DNA of 64,000 bases from Candidatus Stahliibacteriota bacterium (GTDB lineage: Bacteria; Hydrothermota; Tepidihabitantia; B3-TA06): positions 42,264-106,263 of the forward strand of contig SOJW01000035.1 in the NCBI GenBank assembly GCA_004375895.1. Direction: 5' to 3'. Made by a program: the position numbers and the translations under genes. This document shows positions 3,967-60,067 of this stretch, one piece after another. A model generated the notes under the pieces. That model searched no databases. It was not told the DNA's origin and worked only from the letters and a program-made list of their open reading frames with translations. Position 1 is the first letter of the stretch. Each line of letters begins with the position of its first letter.

Positions 3967-5016
3967 ATGGATTCTAACATCGATTTCAAAACAAAAATAA
4001 TTAACGCTATGTTTTTACTCCTCATCCTGAGTCTTACCTTCTGCAGAAGAGGTCTGGGTGAAGGTTATGAATCATTTCGTCTCCCTCACTTTTATTCTCG
4101 AGATCTCCCTGCAAGAGAGATACTACCACTCCTATGGAAAAATGCCTATCTGCCGGACGCGGTGCCTGAAGATGTGGTTGAAAAGGGCAAAAAACTGATC
4201 GTCACCCACCGGGGAGAACCGTATCTGGTTTATGATGTCTCCGGGTGGGAACCGGGCGAGGATGTGGTGGGATTTTATCTGCCGAAGGATTACACCTCTC
4301 CTATAGATGTGGATTCCTATTTATGCGAACAACTTGGGGTAGATGAGTTGCCCTTCCCCATCGAGGAGGAAGAGGAGAGAGCTCCCTTGTTGTTTTTCTA
4401 TCCCTGGCATGGTGAAGATAGTATTGACTATAAGGTAGACCCGGAACCTTTAACCGTAAACGGCAAGATCGTAGGGGGTGTTCTTTCTTCCATAGAATTC
4501 ATGTATTTTCTTGAGGACGAGGGAATCGACATCGAACAGATCGATTTCCGTACCCAAGGAATACTCTGTCTCACGACACAGGCGTTCGAACCTGAGTATA
4601 CCATTAGAAGACTGAGGCGATTCCCTGATCTGGAGGTAGTATTCATGTATCTGGATCGCATCAGTTATGCGTATAGCGACTGCTTTGTCTGGAATGAGAC
4701 CTTATATTACAAGGAGAAATGCTGGCTTTCCAAGTGGCTCTATTTCAGGAACCTTAAGCGAGTGACCGAGATTGCCAACCTTTATCTTTACCTCGCCGAC
4801 ATTGCCGATGACGAACTTAGGCTCTTAAGTGACTTCACCAAGCTTAAGGGGTTGTGGATAAAAAGCGACAGCCTCACCGACGTCGGGCTTGCGCACCTAA
4901 AAAAACTCTCCGGATTGAGGACGCTTTATCTTTATGGAACAGAGGTAAGCGAGGAGGGGATGGTCGAGTTAGGGGAAGTCTTGCCCAGATGTGATATCAT
5001 GCGGAGGGGTCGTTAG
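3967..5016 (+). CDS. Secreted/membrane protein, cassette family B (paralog B2)
   Basis: RBS aaggagg then ATG. N-terminal hydrophobic segment LLLILSLTFC, motif LLFFYPWHGEDSIDYKV. C-terminal LRR (LKGLWIKSDSLTDVGLAHLKKLSGLRTLYLYGTEVSEEG) about 90% identical to B3. Confidence 0.55.
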   Translation: MDSNIDFKTKIINAMFLLLILSLTFCRRGLGEGYESFRLPHFYSRDLPAREILPLLWKNAYLPDAVPEDVVEKGKKLIVTHRGEPYLVYDVSGWEPGEDVVGFYLPKDYTSPIDVDSYLCEQLGVDELPFPIEEEEERAPLLFFYPWHGEDSIDYKVDPEPLTVNGKIVGGVLSSIEFMYFLEDEGIDIEQIDFRTQGILCLTTQAFEPEYTIRRLRRFPDLEVVFMYLDRISYAYSDCFVWNETLYYKEKCWLSKWLYFRNLKRVTEIANLYLYLADIADDELRLLSDFTKLKGLWIKSDSLTDVGLAHLKKLSGLRTLYLYGTEVSEEGMVELGEVLPRCDIMRRGR

Positions 5017-5160: not shown

Positions 5161-5170
5161 CTTCTTGGTT

Positions 5171-6247
5171 ATGAGGCGAAAGAAGAAACTTAAAATTATT
5201 TTCCTGACAATAGGCAGCACCTTGCTTCTTTTAATTTTATCCGTCCTGTTTTCCTACTATTATCTAGTTAGTGATTGGGGTGATAAGAATCGCATTCTGC
5301 CTCCGTTTTATTTTTGGGGTCCATACGCATGGGAGGGGCCATTTGGGCTATTTGTATATGATTATCTTCCGCACCTTTTGAAAGATGCTTATCTCCCGGA
5401 GGAGGTGCCTGAAGATGTGGAAGAAAAATTAGTGGTTCTCCGCGATGGAGAACCGGAAGTAGTTTATGATGTATCCAGGTGGGAACCGGGCGAGCACGTG
5501 ATGCGGTTTTATGCAAGGAGAAGGGAATATGACACCCTGGTGATGACTTCTTTTGATACGGGGGACACGATCCTATATGAGATACGCAAGCTATTCCCCC
5601 AGGAGCAGACTGAATCTGCCACATTGTTTCTTTACCCCTGGCACGGGGAAGATACCATCTCCTATCAGGTTTCGTCTTGGAGTTTGCGGATAAACGGCAA
5701 GCAGGCAGGGGTCCTTTTTCGCCCCATAGAATCAATGTCGTTTCTTCCTGAGGAAAAGATCGAACTTGAATATATCGACGCCCCTACCCAAGGGATAGTC
5801 ACTATTACAATAGAAGATTTTGAACCACCTTTTACAATAAGAAGACTGGAGCGCTTCCCTGACCTGGAGGTAATATTCATGACCCTGTACTTTGAAGATT
5901 ATGCTTACGAGTATTACCGCCGCTTGGCCCCTGAATTGATACGCTACAAAGAGAGGTGCTGGCTTTCCAAGTGGCTCTACTTCAGGGGCCTAAAGCAAGT
6001 GACCGAGATAGCCGATCTTTATCTTTACATCGAGGGAGTGCGCGATGCTGAACTCTGGTTCTTACGTAACTTCACCAAGCTTAAGGGGTTGTGGATCGAA
6101 AGCGACAGCCTCACCGACGCCGGGCTTGCGCACCTAAAAAAACTCTCCGGATTGAGTACGCTTTATCTTTATGGAACAGAGGTAAGCGAGGAGGGGGTAG
6201 CCGAGTTACGGGAAGCCTTGCCGGAGTGTAAGATTACGTTCAGATAA
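5171..6247 (+). CDS. Membrane-anchored protein, cassette family B (paralog B3)
   Basis: ATG at 5171 lies 9 nt after a TTATAC -10 box, so the transcript is leaderless. Has an N-terminal TM helix, LFLYPWHGEDTISYQV, and a C-terminal LRR shared with B2. Confidence 0.55.
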   Translation: MRRKKKLKIIFLTIGSTLLLLILSVLFSYYYLVSDWGDKNRILPPFYFWGPYAWEGPFGLFVYDYLPHLLKDAYLPEEVPEDVEEKLVVLRDGEPEVVYDVSRWEPGEHVMRFYARRREYDTLVMTSFDTGDTILYEIRKLFPQEQTESATLFLYPWHGEDTISYQVSSWSLRINGKQAGVLFRPIESMSFLPEEKIELEYIDAPTQGIVTITIEDFEPPFTIRRLERFPDLEVIFMTLYFEDYAYEYYRRLAPELIRYKERCWLSKWLYFRGLKQVTEIADLYLYIEGVRDAELWFLRNFTKLKGLWIESDSLTDAGLAHLKKLSGLSTLYLYGTEVSEEGVAELREALPECKITFR

Positions 6248-11054: not shown

Positions 11055-13531
11055 CGCTGGTTCTTATAGACGGGCACTCCATCGCCTACCGGTCATACTT
11101 TGCTTACATCAAGAAACCACTCCGAGATTCGTCTGGCCGTAACACCTCCGCAATCTTCGGTTTCCTTCAGGCCATGGATAAGATTGCCGAGCATTATCCG
11201 ACAGATCACATGGTCATAACCTTCGACGCAGGCAGGCGAGTGTTCCGCCACGATAAGTTCGAAGATTATAAGAAAGACAGACCCCAGATGCCGGACGATC
11301 TGGTATGGCAGGTGCCCATGATCACGAGGGTAGCAAAACTGCAGGGTCTGCCGGTGCTCCTCAAGGAAGGCTACGAGGCTGACGACATCATGGCCACCAT
11401 TACAGATAAGCTTGCCAAGAACTTCTCCAAGGTGGTAATCGTTTCAGGCGACAAGGATCTCTATCAGCTGGTGTGCGGCAAGGTGGTGATCTATGACCCT
11501 TACAAGGACGAGGAGTTTGACCCTGAAAAGGTGAAGGGAAAGATGGGCGTTGGGCCTGAACGCATCACCGATCTTTTGGCCCTTATGGGCGATTCAGTAG
11601 ACGGGGTGCCAGGTGTTCCGGGCATCGGCCCCAAGCGGGCAAAGGACTTGCTGGAAAAGTATGGTGATCTGGCAACCGCACTCCAAAAGGAAGAAAAGCT
11701 TGCCGAGCATCGGGAGGTTGCAGAGCTCTCCTACGAGCTTGTTCAGCTGCATCGCGACGTGCCGATTGAAGTTGACGAGGACTCACTCAAGCGCACCGAA
11801 CCGAACGACGCTGGACTTCAGGATATGTATAACGAGCTTGGGTTTACGTCAAGGTTGTCCAGGATGAAGGTAAGGGATAAGACAGCAAAGCTGGAGATCA
11901 CCAAGGGTGAATTTAAACCCAAAAAGGGCGACCCCATATCCTTTATATTCGAGGAGAACTCCGGACAGCGCGATATGTTCGATGAAAGTGAGGAGGAGTG
12001 TTACGGGTGGACGAGAATCCTGGCCTCAGACGGGTTCACGGTGGCGGAGATCACCGAAGATCAAGCGCGTAAACTATTTTCTGAGGAGTGCTACCCCAAG
12101 ATACTGTGGGCGGCAAAGCCCCTGCTGCGCGCCGGGTTCCAGATCAAGGGCAAGCTTTACGACATCCACCTCATGGCGTTTATCGAAAACTCAGATTTGA
12201 GCTTAAGGACCCTGGAACGTGTCTTGGTGCACACTGCAGGCAGACCCATCTCCTCCCCTGCTGACACTGCGAACCTGATGCACGAAGCCGCAGAGCATTA
12301 TCAAAAGGAACTTGAGAACGTGGGGGCATGGGATGTGTACGAGAAGATGGAGGTCCCGCTCATCCCGGTACTTACTAAAATGGAGCAGCGCGGGGTGAGG
12401 CTGGATACCTCATACTTCGGAAAATTAACCGATGGCTGGGAAGGCGAGTTGAAGAAGTTAGAGGAAGAAATCCATGCGATAGCAGAGCAAAAGTTCACCA
12501 TAGGCTCGCCCAAGCAGCTTGCAGAGGTGCTTTTTACCGAGCTTGGCCTTCGTCCCCGCAAACGGACCAAGACCGGCTACTCCACCGCCGCAGGTGTTCT
12601 TGAAGAGATGGCTGACGAGCATCCCATCATACCCAAGGTACTCCAGTGGCGCGCCTTCTCCAAGCTCTTATCGACCTATCTCAGACCTCTGGTTACCCTG
12701 GTGGATAAGGATTCAAGGATACATACGACCTTCGACCAGACCGGTGCGGCCACCGGCAGGTTATCGACCAAGGACCCCAACCTTCAGAACATCCCTATCA
12801 GGGGTGAGCGCGGCCCACAGGTACGTGCAGGGTTTATCGCAAGCCCGGGCTACAAACTCTTATCAGCCGACTACTCACAGATCGAGCTCCGGGTGCTCGC
12901 CCACGTTGCAGAAGATGAAGCGTTGGCCAAGGTATTCCACGACGGTCGGGACGTGCATACCGAGACCTCGATGCGTATCTTCGGGTTGAAGGAAGCTGAC
13001 GTCACCCGCGACCACCGGCGCATGGCCAAGGCGATCAATTACGGGATAATCTACGGCATGGGTCCCTATGGTTTCGCGCGCCGCATGGGTGTGACCACCG
13101 AAGAGGCCTCGCTCTTCATCGAACGCTACCTCGCTTCATTCCCCCAGGTGTCGGCTTGGCGGGAGCAGATTCTTGTGGACGCAAGGGAAAACGGATACGT
13201 ATCCACGATAGCAGGAAGAGTCCGCCGACTCCCGGTTATCTCAGACCGTATGGACATAGCCGAGCGCGCAGCTCTCAACGCACCTATACAGGGGTCTGCT
13301 GCGGATATAATAAAAAAGGCGATGATTACGGTGGAGAAGAATCTCGAAAAGGCGGGGATAGAGCCGGGCATGCTTCTTCAGATCCACGACGAGTTGTTGT
13401 TCGAGGTGAAAGAAAGCGAGGTGGAAAAGGCGAAGAAGATCGTCAAGAAGGACATGGAGTCGGCCTACAAGCTCTCGGTACCGCTTGAGGTGGAGATAGG
13501 GGTAGGTGATAACTGGGCGCAGGCGCATTAG
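11051..13531 (+). CDS. polA: DNA polymerase I (5'-3' exonuclease plus polymerase domains, Taq-like length)
   Basis: 826 aa. N-terminal 5'-nuclease LIDGHSIAYRSYFA. Polymerase motifs RRMAKAINYGIIYGM and QIHDELLFE. GTG start overlaps the upstream stop. Confidence 0.95.
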   Translation: MTLVLIDGHSIAYRSYFAYIKKPLRDSSGRNTSAIFGFLQAMDKIAEHYPTDHMVITFDAGRRVFRHDKFEDYKKDRPQMPDDLVWQVPMITRVAKLQGLPVLLKEGYEADDIMATITDKLAKNFSKVVIVSGDKDLYQLVCGKVVIYDPYKDEEFDPEKVKGKMGVGPERITDLLALMGDSVDGVPGVPGIGPKRAKDLLEKYGDLATALQKEEKLAEHREVAELSYELVQLHRDVPIEVDEDSLKRTEPNDAGLQDMYNELGFTSRLSRMKVRDKTAKLEITKGEFKPKKGDPISFIFEENSGQRDMFDESEEECYGWTRILASDGFTVAEITEDQARKLFSEECYPKILWAAKPLLRAGFQIKGKLYDIHLMAFIENSDLSLRTLERVLVHTAGRPISSPADTANLMHEAAEHYQKELENVGAWDVYEKMEVPLIPVLTKMEQRGVRLDTSYFGKLTDGWEGELKKLEEEIHAIAEQKFTIGSPKQLAEVLFTELGLRPRKRTKTGYSTAAGVLEEMADEHPIIPKVLQWRAFSKLLSTYLRPLVTLVDKDSRIHTTFDQTGAATGRLSTKDPNLQNIPIRGERGPQVRAGFIASPGYKLLSADYSQIELRVLAHVAEDEALAKVFHDGRDVHTETSMRIFGLKEADVTRDHRRMAKAINYGIIYGMGPYGFARRMGVTTEEASLFIERYLASFPQVSAWREQILVDARENGYVSTIAGRVRRLPVISDRMDIAERAALNAPIQGSAADIIKKAMITVEKNLEKAGIEPGMLLQIHDELLFEVKESEVEKAKKIVKKDMESAYKLSVPLEVEIGVGDNWAQAH

Positions 13532-13584
13532 GGGGAGAATTGAACCACAGATTACACCGATTTCACGGATTAAGGTTTGATTAT

Positions 13585-13633
13585 GGAGTGCAACGAGCGC
13601 CTCGTTGCCGCAACAACACGGTTGTTGCACTCC
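13585..13633 (+). repeat. Structured repeat family 'GGAGTG-2 hairpins-CACTCC', copy 1
   Basis: GGAGTG-[CAACGAG cgc CTCGTTG]-ccg-[CAACAAC acg GTTGTTG]-CACTCC. Other copies at 31400, 33157 and 41192. Confidence 0.7.
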
Positions 13634-13659
13634 AAAGTCACGAGGGTAGAAAAAAATGA

Positions 13660-13750
13660 AACACGGAGATCACAGAGAACACGGAGAAAACCATATGAAT
13701 AATTATAATAATCCCCTCCTCTGTGTTCTCCGTGTGCTCTGTGGTTTTAA
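13660..13750 (+). repeat. Long imperfect inverted repeat (~25-bp arms, ~35-nt AT-rich loop) downstream of polA
   Basis: cacggagatcacagagaacacggag ... ctcctctgtgttctccgtgtgctctgtgg. Confidence 0.5.
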
Positions 13751-13756
13751 TACCCT

Positions 13757-14167
13757 ATGACCTGGACACCGCCTAAGACACCCTATCTCACGGTTGACTG
13801 CATCATCAGATACAAGCAAGGGATTGTGCTGATCCAGCGTAGGCATCCGCCCGAAGGCTGGGCCCTGCCCGGAGGATTCTGCGAGATCGGCGAGACGGTC
13901 GAGGACGCGGTGCGCCGGGAGGTGCGCGAGGAGACCGGGCTGGAGCTTGAGAACTTAAAGCAGTTCCGCGTCTACTCCGACCCAGCCCGCGACCCCCGCT
14001 TCCACACCGCCTCAGTGGTCTTTGCCGCCGACGGCATTGGTGTGTTACGGGGCGGAAGCGACGCAAAGGTTGCGAGAGTGTTTAAGTTGGATGAGCTGCC
14101 GGAAGAGATTTGTTTTGACCATCGAGAGATTATACAAGACTACATTGTCAATCTTTCATCTACGTGA
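13757..14167 (+). CDS. NUDIX hydrolase
   Basis: Nudix box GGFCEIGETVEDAVRREVREETGL. Confidence 0.8.
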   Translation: MTWTPPKTPYLTVDCIIRYKQGIVLIQRRHPPEGWALPGGFCEIGETVEDAVRREVREETGLELENLKQFRVYSDPARDPRFHTASVVFAADGIGVLRGGSDAKVARVFKLDELPEEICFDHREIIQDYIVNLSST

Positions 14168-14972: not shown

Positions 14973-15842
14973 ATGTTCGACACCCATACCCACCTTTGTC
15001 ATAAATCCTTCCGTAAGGATCGTGAGGAGGCGTTTGATAGGGCACTGGAAGCGGGCGTGAATCTCATGCTTGAGATTAGCTGGGACGTTCGCTCAAGCGA
15101 GGCAGCCATCCGGTTTGCCGAGGATCACGAAGGCGTGTGGGTGGCGGTAGGTTATCATCCACACGAGTCTCGTAACACCCGTACCCCTTCGGGGCATTCT
15201 CATAATTATTCGGAGCTTACGCTCCGCTCACAAGGAAATAACACCCGCCCCCCTTCGGGGGATTCTCATAATCAGCTTGAATCACAAGGAAATAACACAC
15301 CCAATTATCTGCAAAGGCTTGAAGAGTTAAGTAAACATCAAAAGGTCAAGGCGATAGGCGAGATCGGTCTTGACTACTACAGGGATCTATCGCCGCGGGA
15401 TGTACAGAAGCGGGTGTTTGCAGAGCAGATCGAGCTTGCCGATGAACTCAAGCTACCCATGGTGATCCACTGTCGTGACGCGATGGATGATGTTCTGCCG
15501 ATCGTTGCCGAGCAAGGTTACTACCGGGGCGTTTTTCACTCGATTTCTGCAGACTCGGAGCAGGCACAGAAGATTGTGGGGCTGGGATTCTATCTTGGCA
15601 TCAACGGGACGCTGACCTATGATAGCAAGAGGACCAAAAGCTGGTTGCCTCGGGTTCCGAAAGAGCGGTTGCTTATCGAGACCGACTGCCCCTACCTTGC
15701 GCCTGTCCCCTATCGTCGCGAGCGCAACGAACCCGCGTACGTAAGATACGTGGCCGAGGCGGTAGCCGGTGTCCTAGAGACATCGGTTGAAGAGATCGGA
15801 GATCTAACCGAGAAGAACGGGAAGGAGCTCTTCCTTGGCTAG
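14973..15842 (+). CDS. tatD: TatD-family metal-dependent hydrolase carrying a ~120-bp in-frame repeat-element insertion
   Basis: MFDTHTHLCH and GEIGLDYY motifs. A foreign 40-aa segment RNTRTPSGHSHNYSELTLRSQGNNTRPPSGDSHNQLESQGNNT sits at 15171-15305 and is encoded by the GTTACGG/hairpin element. Confidence 0.85.
   Translation: MFDTHTHLCHKSFRKDREEAFDRALEAGVNLMLEISWDVRSSEAAIRFAEDHEGVWVAVGYHPHESRNTRTPSGHSHNYSELTLRSQGNNTRPPSGDSHNQLESQGNNTPNYLQRLEELSKHQKVKAIGEIGLDYYRDLSPRDVQKRVFAEQIELADELKLPMVIHCRDAMDDVLPIVAEQGYYRGVFHSISADSEQAQKIVGLGFYLGINGTLTYDSKRTKSWLPRVPKERLLIETDCPYLAPVPYRRERNEPAYVRYVAEAVAGVLETSVEEIGDLTEKNGKELFLG
15171..15305 (+). repeat. GTTACGG/hairpin element inserted in frame in tatD, as two tandem units of 66 and 54 bp
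   Basis: Unit: AACACCCG..CCCCTTCGGGG(UUCG-type hairpin)CATTCTCATAAT..CGGAGCTTACGCTCCG..CACAAGGAAAT. About 95% identical to the reverse complement of 63851-63935. Confidence 0.8.
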
Positions 15843-16674
15843 AACCCGGATTGTTCACGTTCATCCGAAAAAGAGACTGGGACAGCACTTTCTGCGCAGA
15901 AAAGAGATAGCGCAGAGGATAGTGGACGCGCTTGAGGTGACCGAGAAAGACACGGTGGTAGAGGTCGGCGCTGGGACAGGCGAACTTACCCGGTTGATTA
16001 TAAAGCAAGCAGGTAAGGTGGTTGCGGTTGAGGTTGACGAGACCTGTTTCCCGACACTCCAGGTTCTTGCCGATCTCAATCACAATCTTGAGTTGTTTTT
16101 AGACGATGTGAGGAAATTGGATCTGTCTCATTATGCGTGTGTTACGGGTGTTACGGGTGGGTGTGTTACGGGTGTTACGGGTAAGGGTGTTACGGGTGTC
16201 CTCGGCAATCTCCCCTATCACCTCTCGGCAGAGATACTGTTCTGGCTGCTGGGACAGAGAAAGTATTGGCAGAGAGCGGTTCTTACGGTGCAGGCGGAGT
16301 TCGCGGCTCGCCTGGCAGCTGAGGTTGGCTCTCACGACTACTCGGCACTCTCGGTTATCGCCCAGACCTTTATCACTACCGAAAAGCTTTTCGACATCCC
16401 TGCCGAAGCCTTCGTACCGCCCCCCAAGGTGAAATCAACTACTATAAGAATACAGCCTATCGATAAAGTTGAGATCCCCCTATCTGAGGAGGACTTCATC
16501 AAGTTTGTCCGCTCGTGCTTTGCCCATCGCCGCAAGAGGCTTGCCAACAACCTCAAGATGATGGGTATACCCACTCCAGACAAGCTTTTAGAAGAACTGG
16601 GGCACTCGCCAACCGTCCGCCCCCAGGAACTCTCATCCCATGACTACATTCGGTTTATTAACGCTGCTCGTTAG
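15835..16674 (+). CDS. rsmA: 16S rRNA (adenine1518/1519-N6)-dimethyltransferase RsmA/KsgA with an in-frame 9-bp tandem-repeat insertion
   Basis: LGQHFLRRKEIAQRIVDAL, VVEVGAGTGELT, and GNLPY carrying an inserted CVTGVTGGCVTGVTGKGVTGV segment. Confidence 0.85.
   Translation: MARTRIVHVHPKKRLGQHFLRRKEIAQRIVDALEVTEKDTVVEVGAGTGELTRLIIKQAGKVVAVEVDETCFPTLQVLADLNHNLELFLDDVRKLDLSHYACVTGVTGGCVTGVTGKGVTGVLGNLPYHLSAEILFWLLGQRKYWQRAVLTVQAEFAARLAAEVGSHDYSALSVIAQTFITTEKLFDIPAEAFVPPPKVKSTTIRIQPIDKVEIPLSEEDFIKFVRSCFAHRRKRLANNLKMMGIPTPDKLLEELGHSPTVRPQELSSHDYIRFINAAR
16135..16200 (+). repeat. (GTGTTACGG)n, ~6 tandem 9-bp repeats in frame within rsmA
   Basis: gtgttacgggtgttacgggtgggtgtgttacgggtgttacgggtaagggtgttacggg. 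Confidence 0.85.
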
Positions 16675-21840: not shown

Positions 21841-21878
21841 GGGGTCCCAGCGAAGTCACGAAGTGACTTCGTGGGGTG
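21841..21878 (+). repeat. Conserved-stem hairpin family GGGGTCCC..N11..GTGGGGTG, copy 1
   Basis: ggggtcccagcgaagtcacgaagtgacttcgtggggtg. Other copies at 22447 (inverted), 33353 and 43749. Confidence 0.65.
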
Positions 21879-22182
21879 AACACACGAAAAATCGGACTGA
21901 TTCAACAGCTTGTCATATTGCTAGATTAAGTGAGTGGCGGGATATCCACCGACATGGTGGTACAGGGATTTGAGCCTGTAGGAGCGACGCATGCGTCGCC
22001 CCTACGTCTATGCCGTATTCTTGGAGTATCTCGGCAGGATCTCGACGTGGTTCAGCGTAGGGGCCGACGTTCGCGGCCTTTGGCCACGCGCTTCGGGCTT
22101 GAGACTTGCCACTATCTGCATATACTGAACTCCGTTTCTTTGTTTCATGGGTGCATTCTCCCCGATGGGGCAATGAGTTGTC

Positions 22183-22384: not shown

Positions 22385-22447
22385 CGGAGGCTCGACCGTA
22401 AGGAGAGCGACCGAAGAGAGCTCCCATCCCTGTCCCCCAGGTTTTAC
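22385..22447 (+). repeat. Degenerate partial tRNA-Gln duplicate (3' half, including an exact 20-bp copy of the 3' end)
   Basis: gttaatcgg...ccctgtcccccaggtttta repeats tRNA positions ~40-71. Confidence 0.55.
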
Positions 22448-22655
22448 CCCACGAAGGTACTGCGTCCCTTCGTGGGGACCCCGAATAAATGCTCCTTTTG
22501 CCCGTAGGGCAAAGGAGCATGGGCAGGAAAGAGGACGGTCGTGTACCCGACTGGGACTAGGCATTCTTTTGAGGGCCGCGGTAGAATTACCTGATTTTTA
22601 ATGCCTATCCCCATTAGAACTTTACATTTTAGCTTGTCTTTCTGTTATATGGTTA

Positions 22656-31355: not shown

Positions 31356-31399
31356 AGACTAACTATGCGGGGATTCAGCCGCTTGTCAAGCAGATTTAT

Positions 31400-31450
31400 G
31401 GAGTGCAATGACCGTGTCATTGCGAAACTGCAACAAGACGCTTGTTGTGA
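31400..31450 (+). repeat. Structured repeat family copy 2 (3' end degenerate)
   Basis: GGAGTG-[CAATGAC cgt GTCATTG]-cgaaactg-[CAACAAG acg CTTGTTG]. Lacks the closing CACTCC. Confidence 0.6.
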
Positions 31451-33031: not shown

Positions 33032-33156
33032 GATTCTCCTCCTAAATCATTTCTGAAGAGTATATAGTCGCTCTCATAGGTGTCAAGAAGAAATCACCCC
33101 CACCCTACCCTCCCCCGTTAAGGGGAAGGATACACCTTTTTCCCCTCCTCGGGTTT

Positions 33157-33205
33157 GGAGTGCAACAACCGCGTTGTTGCAGCAACGAGACGCTCGTTGC
33201 ACTCC
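33157..33205 (+). repeat. Structured repeat family copy 3
   Basis: GGAGTG-[CAACAAC cgc GTTGTTG]-cag-[CAACGAG acg CTCGTTG]-CACTCC. Confidence 0.7.
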
Positions 33206-33305
33206 ATATTCTCATCTCAAAGCATAAAATAATATAGACCAGTCTGAGACTGGTCTATAATCTCTTTTCTCCGATCTTTTGCCGTTTGCGGCAAAGGGAG
33301 GATAT

Positions 33306-33390
33306 AGGGGGCCCCCAAGGTTTTACGAGGTAAAATCTTGGGGTGTAAATTCGGGGTCCCCGCGAGGGTATGAAGTAACCTCGTGGGGTG
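33306..33390 (+). repeat. Two tandem conserved-stem hairpins (GGGGGCCCCCAAGG..CTTGGGGTG and GGGGTCCCCGCGAGG..CCTCGTGGGGTG) abutting the gcvH stop
   Basis: Both have 11-nt loops. Matches the family at 21841, 22447 and 43749. Confidence 0.65.
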
Positions 33391-33810
33391 TTATTTCGCG
33401 TGCTTGGCGATCTCCGTCTTGAGCCAGGTGGCAGCCGCTTCGCCGTGCATCAGAGCGTCAACCTCAGCGGGATCGGCTGGTTTCATGGTAAATATCCAGC
33501 CCGCCCCGTAGGGGTCGGAGTTCACAAGGCTGGGATCGTCCTCCAGCTCGGAGTTCGTCTCAACAATCTCTCCGGCCACAGGTGCGTAGATCTTGCCCAT
33601 CCACTTGCCGGTCTCGTATGAGCCAATCACTTCATCTGCCTGGGCCTCAGAGGAGGTCTCAGGCAGTTCGATGAAGGAGAGCTCACCGGAAAGCTTCTGG
33701 CTGAAGTCGTTGAGGCCAACACGGATAACGTCGCCTTCCTTACGAACCCACATGTGTTCCTTGTGATAGTATAGTTCGTCGGGAAGATTGTATCCTTCTA
33801 TCTCCGCCAT
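33391..33810 (-). CDS. gcvH: Glycine-cleavage H-like lipoyl-carrier protein, stand-alone (LbpA-like candidate)
   Basis: HMWVRKEGDVIRVGL...ETGKWMGKIYAPVAGEIVETN, with the lipoyl-Lys in ETGKW. No gcvT or gcvP nearby. Confidence 0.85.
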   Translation of the reverse strand: MAEIEGYNLPDELYYHKEHMWVRKEGDVIRVGLNDFSQKLSGELSFIELPETSSEAQADEVIGSYETGKWMGKIYAPVAGEIVETNSELEDDPSLVNSDPYGAGWIFTMKPADPAEVDALMHGEAAATWLKTEIAKHAK

Positions 33811-35130: not shown

Positions 35131-35526
35131 CTAGGTTGCCTCTTTGGGGGGATCGAACTCATCCAAAGCCTGCATCAGGTATCCTATGTATTCAAAAACC
35201 GGCCCGCCGCCCATGGCAAGTGCGATGTTGGCCGCATCCAGGATCTCGGCGCGCGTACACCCCACCTGGACGCAGATCTGGGTATGCAGGTTGATGCAGG
35301 GGCGGCAGTGCTGGACCAGAACTATCGCCAGTTGCATCAGCTCCTTGTACTTCGTGGGTACCGTGCTTTCTTCCTTGGTCTTGCGCCAGAACTGCATGAA
35401 TGCGGCAGCTGCATCACTCGCCTCTCTTCTGTATCTTGCCTGAGCCTTGTTGATCTGGCTCTGTTCTGATTCTTTGGAAAGGTGTGTGTTACGGGTGTGG
35501 GTGTTACTGGGGGTCACGACGGCCAC
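35131..35526 (-). CDS. Carboxymuconolactone-decarboxylase/AhpD-like protein; N-terminus encoded by the GTTACGG repeat
   Basis: CMD-like core ...LVQHCRPCINLH. N-terminal VTPSNTHTRNTH is encoded by the repeat at 35481-35515, so the true start is uncertain. Confidence 0.55.
   Translation of the reverse strand: MAVVTPSNTHTRNTHLSKESEQSQINKAQARYRREASDAAAAFMQFWRKTKEESTVPTKYKELMQLAIVLVQHCRPCINLHTQICVQVGCTRAEILDAANIALAMGGGPVFEYIGYLMQALDEFDPPKEAT
35481..35515 (-). repeat. GTTACGG-type repeat within the 5' end of the AhpD-like ORF
   Basis: ggtgtgtgttacgggtgtgggtgttactggg on the plus strand. Read on the coding strand it gives T-R-N-T codons, as in tatD and the glycosyltransferase. Confidence 0.7.
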
Positions 35527-41146: not shown

Positions 41147-41191
41147 AATCGCTCCCTCCGTGTTTGGGAGAGATTATACGGTGAATTATTT

Positions 41192-41240
41192 GGAGTGCAA
41201 CAACCGTGTTGTTGCCGCAATGACATGGTCATTGCACTCC
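41192..41240 (+). repeat. Structured repeat family copy 4
   Basis: GGAGTG-[CAACAAC cgt GTTGTTG]-ccg-[CAATGAC atg GTCATTG]-CACTCC. Confidence 0.7.
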
Positions 41241-41321
41241 ATACAACCTACGAAATCCGCGTTAATCTGCGGACGCCTATGGCGAGAACGACTGCTAAGG
41301 AGTTCTCATCTGTGGTTTATA

Positions 41322-43560: not shown

Positions 43561-43675
43561 CCAGCCTCCTTGGGGGGTTCAATTTCAAAGTTCGTGATTA
43601 TACGGGTTTGGGAAGGTGTGTCAATCAGTATGCACCCCACGAACCCGTCAGCCTTACATCGCACTCGTCACAAAA

Positions 43676-43745
43676 AAGGTGGTCAAAAGTTGGACAAAAG
43701 GTGGTCAAAAGCTACCCAAAAGTTGGACAAAAGTGGGACAGGATT
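43676..43745 (+). repeat. Iteron-like array of ~6 tandem 11-12-bp repeats (GGTGGTCAAAAG / TTGGACAAAAG)
   Basis: ggtggtcaaaagttggacaaaaggtggtcaaaagctacccaaaagttggacaaaagtgggacagg, in the divergent intergenic region. Confidence 0.6.
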
Positions 43746-43748
43746 TAA

Positions 43749-43787
43749 GGGGGTCCCCGCGGAATTGCAAAGCAATTTCGTGGGGTG
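43749..43787 (+). repeat. Conserved-stem hairpin family copy
   Basis: gggggtccccgcggaattgcaaagcaatttcgtggggtg. Confidence 0.65.
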
Positions 43788-43862
43788 TCAGTTCGTCAGG
43801 TTTCAATGGTGTTCTTCAGAAAGGGAGCTTACACTGGTTGGTAAATTCACAAAGGAGAGAAG

Positions 43863-44744: not shown

Positions 44745-46304
44745 ATGCGAGAGGGTAGAGCATGCGCCTTGAGTTTTATCTTAATCTGTCTTGCAAGTTG
44801 CGGTCGTTCCTCCAAGCAAGAGACCAGCCTGCCGCTTGTGCTTTCCATCTCTGTGGACGGCGGGTTCAACGAATACTTCGACCTCACTGATAGTCTGCTT
44901 TATGGTGTTCGATTGGTTCAAACGGACAACGAAGAGTTTGGACTTATGCTTCGCCGGTTCTCACTGGCAGATTCAGGCATCTGCGACACACAGGTTTTTC
45001 CTTGTCCCTGCAAGGACTCCTCGGACTGGTTTTTCTATCCCGGCTTGCGGTTTGAGGTCAAATTATACGCCTCGGATCGCTACTTTGAACGCCTGCCGCA
45101 TCGAGGCTGGAAGCTTTTCCCCGTACCGCTGGGGGATACCTCAAATATGCTTTATCGGGGTGAAGTAATATCGTTCGTTCAGGATTATGTCTCTCAAGAA
45201 TCCTTCCAGAGCACTTTGCGCAGACGTTGGGAACATTTCTATATAATAGACATACACTCTGCGATCCCCCGAACAGTCGCCTGCGTCGAAGGAGAGGTTG
45301 TGGACGTTGCCGACCCATACCTTCTTTTACTATCAGGTTACGGTTACACCAATCAGTGTAACCGGGAAGTGGAGCCTACCCCAAGATACGTTCAAGGTTG
45401 CGAACTTATCCTTATAGATATGCGAGACATGCACGAGCTAGGACGTTTACCGGTAACGCTTGAAAACGACGCATGGGAGATATGGTATAGAGCCTGCTTG
45501 ACCCCTGACCATAAGCTGCTTTACACGGAGATGGTTGAGTGGCCTGAAGGCTGGCGTTATTTCCCAGGGATCGATAAGTTGGTTTCCGAAGAAGAGGTCT
45601 GGACTTCTGCCTGGTATAGATTCTTGGACGATTTTCCAGTGTTGCGATACTACATCCTGGAGCAGAGATCCGTGTTCATCTGGGACATTGACTCTGCAGA
45701 CGTATCCCGCAGCGAACTTCTTCTCCCTCTCGATGCGTTTAGCCCTTCTACCGGAAGATGTCTTGATAATGAGGGCAGGACTATATTCATCTCTCACCTG
45801 CAAGGCTGGGGATTTCACATATTCGAATACAAACCATCGTTCGTTCAGGTCCCAGCGATCTCTGATCTTTCCAGCACCCCTGAGGAACTCGGCTGGTGCA
45901 GAAAATTTGTACCCCCACTTTACAGAAGATTGTATTGGATGCTCTCGCCTGAAAGACGATGGCTGGCGGTGAGTACTGGCAGGGACGAGATAGTCCTTCT
46001 GCCAGCGTGTGAGCTTGCCGATCCCGAACTTAAAAGAAAGAAATTCCCAAAGATAAAATCGAATACGGTTGTGTATATAGATTTCGCACCCGGCGAGGAT
46101 TGGGTTCTTACAGGGAACCGTCCAGGTGCCGTTCCCCTTCTTTACGCCTGCGGTCAAGACAACCCTCCAATCTCTCTGCTTTCATCAAATGAGATAGACT
46201 TCCAGGAGGCCTTTTTCTCGCCCGACGGAAAGCATGTAGGTTACATCTGCCGTTTAGAAGGCGAGAACTACTATCGCCTTCAGGTACGCCGCCTCCCCCC
46301 GTAA
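44745..46304 (+). CDS. Hypothetical lipoprotein (519 aa)
   Basis: Lipobox ICLASC. Stop codon TAA lies inside a CCCCCCGTAACAC repeat. Confidence 0.5.
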   Translation: MREGRACALSFILICLASCGRSSKQETSLPLVLSISVDGGFNEYFDLTDSLLYGVRLVQTDNEEFGLMLRRFSLADSGICDTQVFPCPCKDSSDWFFYPGLRFEVKLYASDRYFERLPHRGWKLFPVPLGDTSNMLYRGEVISFVQDYVSQESFQSTLRRRWEHFYIIDIHSAIPRTVACVEGEVVDVADPYLLLLSGYGYTNQCNREVEPTPRYVQGCELILIDMRDMHELGRLPVTLENDAWEIWYRACLTPDHKLLYTEMVEWPEGWRYFPGIDKLVSEEEVWTSAWYRFLDDFPVLRYYILEQRSVFIWDIDSADVSRSELLLPLDAFSPSTGRCLDNEGRTIFISHLQGWGFHIFEYKPSFVQVPAISDLSSTPEELGWCRKFVPPLYRRLYWMLSPERRWLAVSTGRDEIVLLPACELADPELKRKKFPKIKSNTVVYIDFAPGEDWVLTGNRPGAVPLLYACGQDNPPISLLSSNEIDFQEAFFSPDGKHVGYICRLEGENYYRLQVRRLPP

Positions 46305-46491
46305 CACACACTCTTTGAGTCTTCGAGGGTGTAAGAACCTTGACTCTATGCTCCTCGTCGAATACAATCAAGGTAGAAATAACCACGGATTGCACAGATT
46401 TCACTGATTCAAGGATTCTAAATAAATCTGAGTAATCTGTGTAATCTGCGGTTTCACTTGACTAGTGCTTTATCGTCTACTACAATAGGGT

Positions 46492-47563: not shown

Positions 47564-48526
47564 ATGTGGCTCGAGCGTGTCAAAAAAGCCCTTTCGGGGC
47601 GGATTTCCATTCTTATTGATGCCGGAAACCGCAACAAGGTAAGACGAATTGCCGCGCCCAGGTGGCTTTGCGCAACGATTTCTCTCCTCGTGATCTCGCT
47701 CGTAGTCGGTTTAGGTACTTATGGCCTGAAAAGTACGTTCTTCCACAACAAATTAAGCCGCCTGGAACGAGAAAATCAAGAGGTCCTGCGGCGATTTGCG
47801 GGTCTTGAAAAATCCACTGACTCTTTGACAACATTACTGGCTTACATGGACCGGCACGACATCCAACTCCGCATCCGGAAAGGTTTGGAAGTATTACCTG
47901 CAGATGTCCGCGAACTCGGTGTCGGTGGCTCTGTAATGAAAGGTCCTGAGATCACAGCCTTGCGTGAGATGAATAGCCCGTACTACTCTGACGTCAACAG
48001 AATCTCCGAAGAGATTGATGCACTACAGCGCAAAGCGAACTACCAAGCTGAAAGCTTTTCAGAGGTAGAAACCAAGCTCTTAAAGGACACCGAGATGTGG
48101 GATCACACCCCTTCGATCGTTCCCACCAGAGGTCGGTTCAGCGGCAAGTTCGGCTACCGCCGCGACCCGATCCTTGGCATCCGTAAGATGCACTGCGGGG
48201 TGGACATAACCAACAAGATTGAAACCCCTGTGATTGCTGCAGCAGACGGCGTGGTCTCGTTTGCCGGACGTCTTGCCGGATACGGCAACATGGTGAAGAT
48301 AAACCATGGTTACGAGATCCAGACGATCTACGCTCATCTCTCCGAGATCTATGTCGAGGTCGGTCAGGAGATCAAAAGATACGAAATAATTGCAGCCATA
48401 GGCAACACCGGCAGAACCGTAGGCCCGCACCTGCACTACGAGGTACGCGTGGCGGGCAAAACAGTCAACCCCGAAGGCTACTTCCTTGACGCCGAAGAAA
48501 ACCTGATCCAATACCCTATGCCTTAG
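47564..48526 (+). CDS. M23-family (LytM) peptidase with an N-terminal TM segment and coiled coil
   Basis: HCGVDI...AAADGVV...GNTGRTVGPHLHYEVR. Confidence 0.85.
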   Translation: MWLERVKKALSGRISILIDAGNRNKVRRIAAPRWLCATISLLVISLVVGLGTYGLKSTFFHNKLSRLERENQEVLRRFAGLEKSTDSLTTLLAYMDRHDIQLRIRKGLEVLPADVRELGVGGSVMKGPEITALREMNSPYYSDVNRISEEIDALQRKANYQAESFSEVETKLLKDTEMWDHTPSIVPTRGRFSGKFGYRRDPILGIRKMHCGVDITNKIETPVIAAADGVVSFAGRLAGYGNMVKINHGYEIQTIYAHLSEIYVEVGQEIKRYEIIAAIGNTGRTVGPHLHYEVRVAGKTVNPEGYFLDAEENLIQYPMP

Positions 48527-48530
48527 AGTT

Positions 48531-48575
48531 CCCCCCGTAACACCACAACACCGCAACACCGTAACACCGATTCCC
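48531..48575 (+). repeat. CCCCCCGTAACAC-(CACAACAC CGCAACAC CGTAACAC) 8-bp tandem repeats directly after the peptidase stop
   Basis: tag agtt ccccccgtaacaccacaacaccgcaacaccgtaacacc. Confidence 0.75.
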
Positions 48576-48753
48576 GTGTAAACGACTACTTTTTGCCGAC
48601 CGCAGAAAGTGAATAACTCAAATTGTGAAAAATCGGCAACCGACTAAATTCTATCAAAACGATAGCCTTTTGTGAATCCTTGATTGTGAAGGGTCTGTGA
48701 AATAGACTATTTAGCTCTTGACAACATACTCGGTTTGCTATATACTTATTGTG

Positions 48754-49707
48754 ATGTTCAAGCGTGTCATCTCCTGGCTGTTCAAGCGTATCAACTTCTT
48801 AATTGATGGGGGACCACGCGGTAAAGTAACGCGGCTGGCAATACCACGATGGGGATTATTGTCGGTTGCGGTCGCTTTCAGCCTCCTTATAGGCTTCGCA
48901 GGCCTCTTCATAACCTCTCGTGCCACGGAACAAATCGACTACGATAAACTGACCCGTCTTGAAGAAAACAATAAGCTCCTCGAGATTCAGTACCAACAGC
49001 TCAATGAACAGATCGATTCACTCAAGACCCTGCTTGTCCTACTTGGTAAGCACGACCTCCAACTTCGCGTCCAAGCCAATATGAGGGTCCTGCCGGAGGA
49101 TGTTCGCGAACTCGGCGTGGGCGGAGAAAAGAAAAAGGATAGGGAGCTGCTGGCATTAGAGCAGATAAAAAGCAAACAATATCAGGATGTAACCGAGATA
49201 TCCAACACCGTTGACGAACTCCTGCGCAAGGCAAAATATCAGAAGGAAAGCTTTGCAAATATCGGGGAGAAACTCAAGAAAAACAAGAATCTTCGAGATC
49301 ACACCCCATCGATTCGGCCTTGCAACGGCTGGCAGTGTAGTGGATTCGGTTACCGTATAGATCCCTTTACCAAGCGCCCAAGGATGCACAACGGCGTTGA
49401 CATCTCGAACGCTCCGGGAACACCTATCGTGGCGACCGCCGATGGGGTGATTTCATATATAGGTGCGCGTTCCGGTTACGGCCTGTGCATCAAGCTGGAT
49501 CACGGTAACGAGATCGAAACGTTCTATGCTCACGTGGGAGGTATATATGTAAAGCCGGGTGAGGAGGTATTACGCGGCCAGGTGATAGCAGTCATGGGAG
49601 CAACCGGACGCACAACAGGCACCCATCTGCACTACGAGGTAAGGGTAGGGGGTAAAGCGGTTAACCCGCTCAACTACATCATCGACGAAAGCGAATTCAG
49701 TTTCTAA
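48754..49707 (+). CDS. M23-family peptidase, tandem paralog
   Basis: HNGVDI...ATADGVI...GATGRTTGTHLHYEVR. A TTGACA-17-TATACT promoter at 48718-48746 makes the ATG at 48754 near-leaderless, so the start is uncertain. Confidence 0.75.
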   Translation: MFKRVISWLFKRINFLIDGGPRGKVTRLAIPRWGLLSVAVAFSLLIGFAGLFITSRATEQIDYDKLTRLEENNKLLEIQYQQLNEQIDSLKTLLVLLGKHDLQLRVQANMRVLPEDVRELGVGGEKKKDRELLALEQIKSKQYQDVTEISNTVDELLRKAKYQKESFANIGEKLKKNKNLRDHTPSIRPCNGWQCSGFGYRIDPFTKRPRMHNGVDISNAPGTPIVATADGVISYIGARSGYGLCIKLDHGNEIETFYAHVGGIYVKPGEEVLRGQVIAVMGATGRTTGTHLHYEVRVGGKAVNPLNYIIDESEFSF

Positions 49708-56471: not shown

Positions 56472-57394
56472 CGCTTCTTTTAGGTATACTCTTCATATTT
56501 ATCCAGGGCTTCTTTTCCGGTTCGGAAACGGCCTACGTGGTGGCGAACCCGGTGAGGGTAGCTCATCTTTCTAAGAAAACCCGCAGACAGGAAAAGGCTA
56601 TAGAGCTCTTAAACAACCCCGAACTCCTACTGGTAGCCACCCTTATAGGAACCAACATCGCGGTTGTCCTCTCAGGGTTGTTCCTCACCGCCTTCTTCGT
56701 GGATCAACTCAACGAAACCTTGGGAACGATCGTGGCTATCATCGTAGGTGTGCTGGCAGGATTGCTGCTCGGCGAGTATCTGCCCAAGAATCTGGCCCGG
56801 TTGAACGCAGAGCAAGTGGTGATAGCTACCTCTCCTTTCTATTCCGTGGCGATAGTGCTTTCAAAACCCTTCAGAAGACTCTTTCGTCGCCCTAAGAGAA
56901 AGGAGAAAAGAGGCGAACGTCTCTCCATCACACGGCTGGATATGCTCACCGCACTGAGACTCGGCGAAAAGATTGGGAGTATAGAAGAAAAAACCTCACC
57001 TCGCGTCGCCAACCTCTTCAGTGCATTCGACACCCCCCTTGGTGACGTGATGACCCCGTGGGATCGTGTGGTAACGCTGAAGACCGGCACCAAACGTGGC
57101 AATATCCTTAAGGTGATTGAGCGGGAGGGATTCACACGTTACCCTGTTTTGAATCGCCGCACCGGACGCATCAAGGGCATCCTGCACGCCAAGGACCTTC
57201 TGCGGGAAAAACCCAGATTGAGCAAGCCCTTCTTCACCACGCCGGGCGCTCGCATCACCGAACTTCTGCGCACCATGCAGAACAACCGGGCGCACATGGC
57301 GATCGTTTTAGACAGAGAGGATAAGCCTGTAGGGCTTGTCACCCTCGAGGACCTGCTTGAGGAGTTCGTTGGCGAGATCCGCAGCGAGGAATAA
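56468..57394 (+). CDS. Second DUF21-CBS membrane protein (paralog, shorter)
   Basis: GTG start overlapping the upstream TGA. DUF21 plus CBS pair. Confidence 0.75.
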   Translation: MTLLLGILFIFIQGFFSGSETAYVVANPVRVAHLSKKTRRQEKAIELLNNPELLLVATLIGTNIAVVLSGLFLTAFFVDQLNETLGTIVAIIVGVLAGLLLGEYLPKNLARLNAEQVVIATSPFYSVAIVLSKPFRRLFRRPKRKEKRGERLSITRLDMLTALRLGEKIGSIEEKTSPRVANLFSAFDTPLGDVMTPWDRVVTLKTGTKRGNILKVIEREGFTRYPVLNRRTGRIKGILHAKDLLREKPRLSKPFFTTPGARITELLRTMQNNRAHMAIVLDREDKPVGLVTLEDLLEEFVGEIRSEE

Positions 57395-57585
57395 CCTTCA
57401 CCCCACCAGGCTACTTCGTATCCTGGCGGGGACCCCGACGTAAATCCTCCTTTTTCCCTGCGGGAAAAAGATCGGAGAGGGGAGAATGTAGAGAGGTAGG
57501 GGCACGGCATACCCTATGAGCGTATGAACCGCTCAAGGGGCACGCTGTGCCGTACCCATACTTTCTATCTCCATAGGAAGTCAGG

Positions 57586-57650
57586 AATGCCCCGAAGGGG
57601 AAACGGTGTTTTACGGGTGGTGTTACGGGTACGGGTGTTACGGGGGGGGC
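57586..57650 (+). repeat. GTTACGG/hairpin element copy (GAATGCCCCGAAGGGG + GTTACGG repeats) abutting a promoter
   Basis: gaatgccccgaaggggaaacggtgttttacgggtggtgttacgggtacgggtgttacgggggggg, followed by TTGACA-16-TATGAT at 57651-57678. Confidence 0.75.
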
Positions 57651-57876
57651 TTGACATATCCCTAAATCTTCCTATGATAATTATAGAGGTCTTTATGGGT
57701 CGGATGGAACTCCTATATGCTCAATTCCAACACATAAAAGAGGACGTCACTAACGCAAAGACAGGGTGGGAGATCGGTGTAAACCCCCGACTCTTACTCT
57801 TTAAACCAAGAGCCAACCCGGCAGGATGGTTTCTGAAAAAGCCATTCCGCAGGGGAAAATAAAAAGGAGGACATAA

Positions 57877-59910: not shown

Positions 59911-59974
59911 GTGAAACGGGGTCGGATGGCGGGAAGTCCCGGGGCTCCCAGGCTCCTCCTTCTCGGGACTCCCG

Positions 59975-60018
59975 CCCCCCGTAACACCGTAACACCGTAA
60001 CACACCGCAACACACCCA
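59975..60018 (+). repeat. CCCCCCGTAACACC 8-bp tandem repeats after the gene stop and before the next promoter
   Basis: cgccccccgtaacaccgtaacaccgtaacacaccgcaacacaccc, then TTGACA at 60023. Confidence 0.75.
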
Positions 60019-60067
60019 CCCCTTGACAAGGTTCCAAAAAAGCCTACACTCTTTTAGGAGGTTGTGT

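Follow-up and report, generated by a model that had tools for sequence, protein, structure and literature searches.

How does the same short repeat come to lie, in one reading frame, within unrelated housekeeping genes of one bacterium? The question is raised by 64,000 nucleotides (nt) of contig SOJW01000035.1 (assembly GCA_004375895.1, forward-strand positions 42,264 to 106,263), from a Candidatus Stahliibacteriota bacterium. This stretch is called the window here, and positions are counted from its first letter. It carries an element within tatD (15171-15302) and, on the minus strand, within the gene of a GT4 glycosyltransferase (63851-63940). The copies probably belong to a family of very small, non-autonomous selfish repeats that is restricted to the candidate division WOR-3 lineage, is built in two tiers and survives within open reading frames (ORFs) by virtue of its frame.

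The two copies are close in sequence: positions 15177-15244 and 63858-63925 are 96% reverse-complementary over 68 nt. Both ORFs read through them, which bears out the original prediction, made from the letters alone, that the two genes share an element in the same frame. The tatD ORF (14973-15842, plus strand; Pfam TatD_DNase, E=2e-74) stays open through 135 nt of repeat (...HPHESRNTRTPSGHSHNYSELTLRSQGNNTRPPSGDSHNQLESQGNNTPNYL...) and specifies 289 amino acids, compared with about 250 in insert-free orthologs; its repeat peptide in full is SRNTRTPSGHSHNYSELTLRSQGNNTRPPSGDSHNQLESQGNNTP. The glycosyltransferase ORF, identified by Pfam, translation and alignment, occupies 63251-64000 on the minus strand and runs past the end of the window. 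It translates as ...IPNGFDAADFTRNTRTRTPLGHSHNYSELTLRSQGHNTLSTPARK... in the element frame of tatD, with TRNTRTRTPLGHSHNYSELTLRSQGHNT as its full repeat peptide. The constituent motifs are strongly over-represented: for CCGTAACAC the window has 18 occurrences where 0.23 would be expected, and for GTGTTACGGGT, with at most one mismatch, 15 where 0.64 would be expected.

The element has two components, a 9-nt satellite, CCGTAACAC, and a discrete core of 57 nt, or 19 codons. Satellite variants of 6, 8, 10, 11 and 12 nt also occur. The core always lies within one satellite unit, at CCGTA^ACAC, with satellite units on both sides, and its orientation relative to the satellite is fixed. The copies were collected with a 20-nt degenerate pattern, run over 185,579 species, each represented by a single genome, and over metagenome contigs of the Joint Genome Institute (JGI), and further core units were then recovered with an nhmmer profile. 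This gave 48 units, 37 of them distinct, at no fewer than 20 loci (other sequences compared carry our labels L or P); a few degenerate or truncated copies aside, the junctions are CCGTA/core/ACAC or core/core. There are two 57-nt subtypes, type 1 (CCCCTTCGGGGCATTCTCATAATTAYTCGGAGCTTRCGCTCCGYTCACAAGGAAATA) and type 2 (CCCTTGCGGGGCATCTCCATAACTCCATGGGGCTAACGCCCCTTAATCAAGGACATA), and a 45-nt form, type B, which lacks the second hairpin and occurs in tatD only. Head-to-tail cores have a period of 57 nt, with no satellite between them, or of 66 nt, with one unit between them. The hairpins CCCC-TTCG-GGGG and CGGAGC-TTAC-GCTCCG, with stems of 4-6 bp, are present as originally described, and the two are retained in 94% of cells of the core alignment. 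The core is not palindromic overall and contains no long inverted repeat; terminal inverted repeats of 6 nt or more are lacking at its ends, where by eye just CCTT(G)...(C)AAGG can be made out. The unit lengths of 66 and 54 nt first given for tatD are correct; the idea of a single unit of 60-100 bp gives way to a composite of 9-nt satellite and 57-nt core, with its 45-nt derivative.

In tatD the parts follow one another on the plus strand. A satellite unit, CGTAACACC, and a half unit, CGTA, which encode RNT-R, occupy 15171-15183. The type-1 core, CCCCTTCGGGGCATTCTCATAATTATTCGGAGCTTACGCTCCGCTCACAAGGAAATA, spans 15184-15240, with hairpin 1 at 15184-15194 and hairpin 2 at 15211-15226. A junction satellite unit, ACACC-CGCC with degenerate GTA (15241-15249), leads to the type-B core (15250-15294), and a trailing partial unit, ACACACCC, closes the element (15295-15302). 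The type-B core is the older, being common to L013, L040, P0002, P0003 and P0007. The type-1 core is strain-specific at this site; it matches the L022 copy exactly and the glycosyltransferase copy at 96% identity. The latter, also of type 1 and in the same frame as in tatD, lies at 63862-63918 on the minus strand, with 5' satellite units at 63919-63940 (ACCCGTAACACCCGTACCCGTA in the sense direction) and degenerate 3' units at 63851-63861.

Orthologs compared at fixed sites form a series, from outgroups with no insert through one or two satellite units to one core and then two cores. Outgroups and many WOR-3 relatives lack the insert in TatD, RsmA and the glycosyltransferase, and close relatives have 0, 1 or 2 units, so that its supposed lineage specificity is upheld. 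In TatD the insert-free sequence of outgroups and several WOR-3 relatives reads HPHDAKDAPGNYL. Among tatD alleles L035 is empty, L041 has one 9-mer, and L037 and L039 have two intact 9-mers and no core at the equivalent of 15171-15183. L013 and L040 carry the 45-nt core within the first 9-mer, and the window has the additional type-1 core in the unit just upstream of it. P0003 and P0007, the closest relatives, lack this type-1 core in tatD, and it is identical to copies at unrelated loci of other genomes. What separates L041 from L035 looks like an 18-nt replacement that leaves the length unchanged. RsmA has 0 units in outgroups and some relatives and 1 to about 8 in others; the glycosyltransferase has nothing in distant relatives and satellite only in closer ones.

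The moving unit is best delimited by two glycosyltransferase alleles, L019 and L072, which are 97.7% identical over 1,284 nt with a single gap of 57 nt. The gap is the core, within the middle of three satellite units, and the sole repeat at its junctions is TA; a 9-bp target duplication is therefore excluded and simple slippage is unlikely. Among filled and empty alleles generally, target-site duplication amounts at most to a TA ambiguity. Two other schemes were considered and rejected. A 9-bp target duplication, with the arrays as excision footprints, calls for an extra 9-mer that is found neither in L039 versus L013 nor in L072 versus L019, and an IS608-like cut after TTAC, giving a 66-nt unit, is not supported, the clean indel being 57 nt. 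Orthologs of a small membrane protein with two transmembrane segments carry one, two, or three or more cores. In this gene type-2 and type-1 cores adjoin, which looks like repeated insertion into a hotspot and not like duplication. The mean identity of type-1 cores at 17 loci is 95.5%, part of each being fixed by the search pattern, and orthologous host DNA of the same genomes is about 80% identical; the high identity of the cores argues for mobility and not for local duplication.

The reading frame is the next part of the answer. In the sense direction frame 0 of the core (...TRNTRTPSGHSHNYSELTLRSQGNNTRNT...) is open and hydrophilic, frame 1 is open and hydrophobic and frame 2 contains a stop; the antisense frames have a stop in all three. 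Unit lengths within ORFs are 9, 12, 45, 57 and 66 nt, all multiples of three. Every ORF verified by Pfam or homology uses frame 0. Internal insertions of this kind are found in TatD, the glycosyltransferase, the CN_hydrolase domain of NadE (L033), a radical-SAM/DUF2344 linker (L024) and the two-transmembrane protein, and N-terminal ones in CMD (L003), the CDP-alcohol phosphatidyltransferase CDP-OH_P_transf (L021, L010) and V-ATPase B (L006). Were the second open frame equally acceptable, the probability of such uniformity would be about 1/128. Wherever a frame with a stop falls in phase with a gene, the gene ends at the element's stop (for example window 46304, L027, L014, and recO in L015). 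The proposed frame bias thus holds. Satellite spacings are 9 or 12 nt in ORFs, and those of 8, 11 and 13 nt are confined to sequence outside ORFs, which points to a selective filter. The in-frame property is best read as such a filter by selection, helped by core lengths of 45 and 57 nt that are divisible by three.

The host proteins appear to accommodate the insert. Pfam confirms all four host families in the window (TatD_DNase, RrnaAD, Glyco_trans_1_4 and CMD), in agreement with their first assignment, and ortholog alignments place invariant catalytic columns intact on either side of the inserts. In an AlphaFold2 model TatD is a confident barrel, and insert residues 71-109 have a predicted local distance difference test score below 50. 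The insert is modelled as a disordered beta3-alpha3 loop on the barrel's catalytic face, with strand 55-59 before it and helix 112-119 after it. Its predicted tryptic peptide is TPSGHSHNYSELTLR.

Two further genes, rsmA and an AhpD-like gene, had also been assigned copies of the family; the satellite is indeed present in both, without the core. In rsmA (15835-16674, plus strand; RrnaAD, E=1e-49 and ortholog alignment) Tandem Repeats Finder delimits an array of about seven GTGTTACGG units, with period 9/24, at 16139-16199 (plus strand). Its orientation is opposite to that in tatD, and it is translated as (VTG)n, CVTGVTGGCVTGVTGKGVTGV. The CMD/AhpD-like ORF (35131-35526, minus strand) begins (V)TPSNTHTRNTHLSK, in which TPSNTHTRNTH derives from a short array; the satellite at this 5' end (35485-35510, minus strand) accounts for SNTHTRNTH. 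The L003 CMD ortholog has a long array and a full core at the equivalent place.

Other copies in the window lie at or beyond the ends of genes. The satellite unit CCCCCCGTAACACACAC at 46290-46309 (plus strand) contains CCG TAA, which gives the stop of ORF 44745-46304, an arrangement that recurs in L027 and L014. An intergenic array of period 8 (48531-48569, plus strand) begins 5 nt past the stop of an M23 peptidase gene (47564-48526); this gene and 48718-49707 are tandem M23 peptidase paralogs with the array between them. At 57585-57645 (minus strand) an intergenic remnant consists of the first 16 nt of the core, namely hairpin 1, and a satellite array; it abuts TTGACA at 57651. A further intergenic array, with periods of 8 and 10, lies at 59975-60016 (plus strand) and abuts TTGACA at 60023. 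These hexamers begin the best sigma-70-like promoter matches within 57300-60200 (57651-57678, 11/12; 60023-60050, 10/12), both of which start at most 7 nt from the array ends, in the position of an UP element. Lone satellite units at 11998-12008 (in polA), 14042-14052 (in a NUDIX gene) and 11137-11145 may be seeds, relics or chance occurrences.

Two arrangements elsewhere bear on the anatomy. Between the hairpins of a core subfamily (L030 1184-1267 and L008 3793-3895) lies an inserted satellite unit of 12 nt, GGTGTGTTACGG, with opposite orientation, which indicates that single satellite units can arise outside arrays. At L022 4255-4415 the element and about 50 nt lie between the halves of an imperfect duplication of about 19 nt. 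The duplication takes in part of a gene for a secreted protein, namely its ribosome-binding site and codons 1 to 3 (AGGAGNAANGATGCGTAAG), and the insertion point follows GCGTAAG, which is satellite-like.

The family has a narrow distribution. The core was found in two WOR-3 genomes, at 7 loci, in the scan of 185,579 species; one Bacteroides match does not extend into the element. The metagenome scan returned 25 stretches, of which 4 represent one unrelated sequence and 21 carry the element, and the element-bearing metagenome contigs with identifiable genes are orthologous to WOR-3 loci. Candidate division WOR-3 is likewise the source of the closest named homologs of TatD, RsmA and the glycosyltransferase, a few of them deposited as TA06. 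In all, 298 kb contain 38 satellite arrays, which lie at unrelated loci both in coding and in non-coding sequence. A literature search for WOR-3 repeat elements returned nothing relevant.

Viral sequences contain the satellite motif in other settings. The core was not found in IMG/VR viral contigs, and the doubled 9-mer is present in 30 of them. Roughly a third to a half of the 30 have collagen-like (GVT)n coding repeats, about 12 are one phage family and the rest are mixed. In the phage family (L048 3500-3560 and 4640-4790; L042, L050, L052-L054, L058, L061, L063, L066, L067) an inverted array palindrome, (CCGTAACAC)3-loop-(GTGTTACGG)3, directly follows a Prim-Pol + AAA_25 replication gene, and the 8/9-mer also lies in frame (VTGGVTGNVT) within the linker of that gene, an iteron-like arrangement. 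Another of the 30, a 41.8-kb 'viral' contig (IMGVR_UViG_3300031586_000008; L059 2987-3907, minus strand), shares its sample of origin with WOR-3 contigs. It carries a GVTGVTGGPGVTG array, read as (VTG)n, near the C-terminus of a 306-residue ORF; a neighbouring ORF resembles an rve/DDE integrase by eye only. A viral origin of the element was rejected, the core being missing from IMG/VR and the viral contigs having no established host link to WOR-3.

How might such an element spread? In the first tier, satellite arrays gain and lose units, for which slippage would be the simplest cause. In the second, the 57-nt core is gained or lost precisely and would be moved in trans. Different core subtypes pile up side by side in one array, which suggests that the arrays act as landing pads. 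All unit lengths within ORFs are multiples of three and one hydrophilic frame is free of stops; copies in loops, linkers and termini would therefore be read through as disordered peptide and tolerated. To judge from their distribution, copies in other frames or orientations would be purged by selection, or kept only between genes or as a new stop. By analogy with IS200/IS605 elements and with repetitive extragenic palindromic (REP) sequences and their REP-associated tyrosine transposases, movement of the core would fit best with single-strand 'peel-and-paste' transposition of the HUH/Y1 type. In that process the element is excised precisely and the donor resealed, insertion occurs on the 3' side of a fixed short oligonucleotide, hairpins are subterminal and no duplication arises (PMC5027513, PMC5934647). 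A circularised core would read ...GGAAATA/CCCCTTCGG... across its junction.

Several observations weigh against the proposal of a mobile selfish repeat. A mobilising gene or transposase was not found in about 300 kb of WOR-3 sequence, searched with a crude regular expression for the Y1 motif that gave one spurious match, and the Pfam scan, which took in 26 of the roughly 65 window ORFs, contained no transposase family. The hairpin geometry is unlike that of IS608: one hairpin lies 14 nt from a core end and the other abuts the opposite end, which leaves no room for a guide tetranucleotide. Predicted folding is unexceptional (z-scores of -1.0 to -1.4) and lends the structure little support, and a single compensatory pair, A-U to G-C in hairpin 2, represents one event that marks the type-2 subfamily. 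The seeding of satellite at new sites is left unexplained, and the 57-nt polymorphisms can be read as insertion or excision alike. Translation of the inserts is judged from the integrity of the ORFs. The sample of copies is biased by the 20-nt search pattern and by genomes that are fragmented at repeats.

Among the alternatives, an artefact of assembly or binning has a negligible probability. One public contig, JAUUXQ010000008.1 (GCA_030588455.1), breaks at window 16157, within the rsmA array, which makes the copy number of this array less certain, and several other copies sit at contig ends. The same contig, however, which belongs to a second assembly of this organism, encodes an identical TatD and agrees with the window at every base of an 11,185-nt overlap, both tatD units included. 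Independent assemblies and metagenomes from several samples agree on the element structures, orthologous copies recur across many samples and assemblers, and the ORFs are intact across all copies, so that the structures seen at first were not misassembled. A model without transposition, in which slippage, unequal crossing-over and ectopic gene conversion among arrays move passive cores, is improbable as a full account. It draws on the clear expansion and contraction of arrays, on the head-to-tail tandems of 57 and 66 nt and on the conversion-like replacement of an equal-length patch between L041 and L035. The flanking 9-mers would moreover supply homology for conversion between loci, which could yield a precise core indel. 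A precise 57-nt indel bounded by 2-nt TA is, however, hard to obtain by slippage, and the origin of arrays at new sites remains unexplained. Gene conversion via the flanking 9-mers is a live alternative for movement of the core between existing arrays.

The other alternatives assign the repeat a function. It is unlikely that the hairpins, one with a C(UUCG)G tetraloop, and the CCGUAACAC repeats serve the host as RNA, as stabilisers of mRNA 3' ends or as processing or protein-binding sites, with the copies in ORFs as by-products. Many intergenic copies do begin, in the sense orientation, a few bases after an upstream stop (window 48531, L004/L020, L006, L021, L027), and hairpin 2 has its compensatory change between subtypes. 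Intergenic copies nevertheless lie in both orientations to transcription (57585 versus 59975), no U-tract terminators were found, and fold energies are unexceptional. The core is more conserved than host genes, but a recently active mobile element would show high identity equally; presence differs between near-identical alleles, which makes single copies dispensable. A structured RNA or ribozyme in particular was rejected on the z-scores, the one compensatory pair and Rfam, which has no match to the element either at the gathering score or at E up to 1. It is very unlikely that the satellite is a protein-binding DNA site, an iteron or operator of a mobile replicon or of a host DNA-binding protein, with the core as an accessory. 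The palindrome and in-frame linker copy of the phage family, the array beside the integrase-like ORF and the two window arrays at promoter-like sites all lean that way. The phage family, however, comes from other samples, has no established link to WOR-3 and was found via an 18-mer search whose match may be chance. The promoter association is not significant (4 of 36 arrays versus about 1.6 expected), promoters concentrating between genes anyway, and the multiple-of-three lengths of arrays in ORFs and the 57-nt core are left unexplained. A benefit from the inserted peptide itself, say as a flexible, histidine-containing linker or tag that recombination spreads between genes, is scarcely plausible. 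Every verified ORF uses one frame, the peptide is hydrophilic and contains GHSHN, and both core subtypes encode peptides of like character. The frame bias, however, follows from stops in four of six frames and a hydrophobic second open frame. The DNA is found equally conserved in intergenic copies and in other frames (L004, frame 1; L015 and L030, frame 2), and conservation is at the nucleotide level, third codon positions included. Presence varies, moreover, among near-identical alleles of essential enzymes, and the peptide is predicted to be disordered.

The proposed family of mobile selfish repeats can be compared with known systems. Rickettsia palindromic elements (RPEs) are likewise short selfish repeats that lie in frame in many unrelated housekeeping genes, add a conserved peptide without disturbing the host fold, also occur between genes, are restricted to a single lineage and move by an unknown mechanism (Ogata et al., 2000, 2002, as summarised in PMC10969869). 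They differ in being about 100-150 bp long, palindromic throughout and confined to Rickettsia. The WOR-3 core has 57 nt and two short local hairpins, and is surrounded by a tandem satellite of 9-nt units, which invades ORFs in its own right and piles up in tandem. By description, size, palindromy, host and the satellite tier set the WOR-3 element apart from the RPE family. The original comparison with RPEs therefore stands for behaviour and for the distinctness of the family, and fails for overall palindromy, with which the fold z-scores also disagree. Miniature IS200/IS605 derivatives and REP/REPIN elements, which are moved by Y1 HUH transposases (PMC5027513, PMC5934647, PMC3116915, PMC8266576), share the lack of inverted termini and of target duplication beyond TA, precise presence or absence, small hairpins near the ends, and insertion beside a fixed short oligonucleotide in one orientation. 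The WOR-3 spacing from hairpin to end is unlike that of IS608. REPs, moreover, are extragenic and often paired as REPINs, in contrast to the WOR-3 element, which lies in ORFs and within a satellite array; several copies within ORFs also separate it from REP and bacterial interspersed mosaic elements, strictly defined as extragenic.

Transposable elements of the miniature inverted-repeat type (MITEs) such as Correia, ERIC, Nezha, QMITE1 and the Anabaena MITEs are small, non-autonomous and multi-copy, and occasionally lie in frame in ORFs (PMC10969869 for in-frame fusions); Correia and IS630-type elements target TA. The WOR-3 element is also small, non-coding by itself, multi-copy and polymorphic for presence (tatD and the glycosyltransferase). 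MITEs, however, mostly measure 100-400 bp, duplicate their target and have terminal inverted repeats of at least 10 bp, whereas the WOR-3 element duplicates at most TA; without a terminal inverted repeat of even 6 nt, it is not a classical MITE. Coding minisatellites, or variable number tandem repeats (VNTRs), resemble it in their multiple-of-three units, strain-varying copy number and effect on protein length, as in (VTG)n of RsmA and (RNT)n of TatD and the glycosyltransferase. Copy number ranges from 0 to about 8 units in RsmA, from 0 to 3 in TatD and from 1 to 3 or more cores in the two-transmembrane protein, and is variable in the glycosyltransferase. VNTRs are locus-specific, in contrast to the WOR-3 satellite, which is dispersed over dozens of unrelated coding and non-coding loci and hosts a second element, and so is more than a VNTR. 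The mobile GC clusters and 'byp' elements of yeast mitochondria are optional inserts of tens of bases in protein-coding genes. Byps contain stops or frameshifts, and the ribosome skips them; the WOR-3 element, being in frame and free of stops, needs no such bypass.

The window, with a G+C content of 52.6% and about 65 ORFs in a greedy set that covers about 89% of it, holds other repeats besides. An unrelated intergenic hairpin of about 45 nt occurs in six copies, at 21841-21886, 33308-33353, 33353-33398 and 43750-43795 on the plus strand and at 22443-22486 and 57397-57440 on the minus strand. Its base, GGGG(T)CCCC ... GGGGTG, is constant, and its upper stem of 9-10 bp varies from copy to copy yet pairs, with many compensatory changes; a structured RNA, an element akin to a terminator and a REP-like family are all conceivable. 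One copy, searched within 57300-57750, had no match in Rfam. A separate intergenic family, a palindromic double hairpin, has four copies (13581-13636, 31396-31424, 33153-33209 and 41188-41244) and the form GGAGTGC-(CAACGAG CGC CTCGTTG)-C-(GCAACAAC ACG GTTGTTGC)-ACTCC, with compensatory changes in its first hairpin. Further intergenic tandem arrays lie at 13546-13572, 46384-46409, 46425-46448, 13660-13688 and 43674-43740; their units are the 9-mers CACAGATTA / AATCTGAGT and AACACGGAG and an 11-mer, AAAAGGTGGTC, in six copies. The genome is unusually rich in small intergenic satellites. Tandem paralogs at 3967-5016 and 5165-6247, which encode hypothetical proteins, share 278 nt at 87% identity.

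Selfish DNA within protein-coding genes has few well-documented bacterial examples, of which RPEs are the best known, with a mechanism unknown since 2000. The filled and empty alleles at 97.7% identity define the moving unit to the base, which the Rickettsia case lacks. They give a 57-nt unit that lacks inverted repeats, targets CCGTA^ACAC and duplicates nothing beyond TA, which makes it possible to design a biochemical search for its enzyme. There is a practical side as well: the satellite repeats fragment WOR-3 assemblies, breaking metagenome-assembled contigs in which array copy numbers may be collapsed, and they inflate WOR-3 gene lengths in annotations. TatD, the glycosyltransferase and RsmA, which occur naturally with 0, 1 and 2 inserts, offer a probe of how much disordered insertion catalytic folds tolerate, and satellite landing pad and core together form a two-tier generator of length variation in housekeeping enzymes. 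We suggest, tentatively, that the 57-nt core may rank among the smallest known mobile elements with a specific site, that an HUH-type or a new enzyme may move it in trans, and that it may have co-evolved with its 9-nt landing pad such that every length class is a multiple of three. If so, this would be a system adapted to coding sequence, through which essential enzymes of a whole candidate phylum would continually acquire and lose disordered loops.

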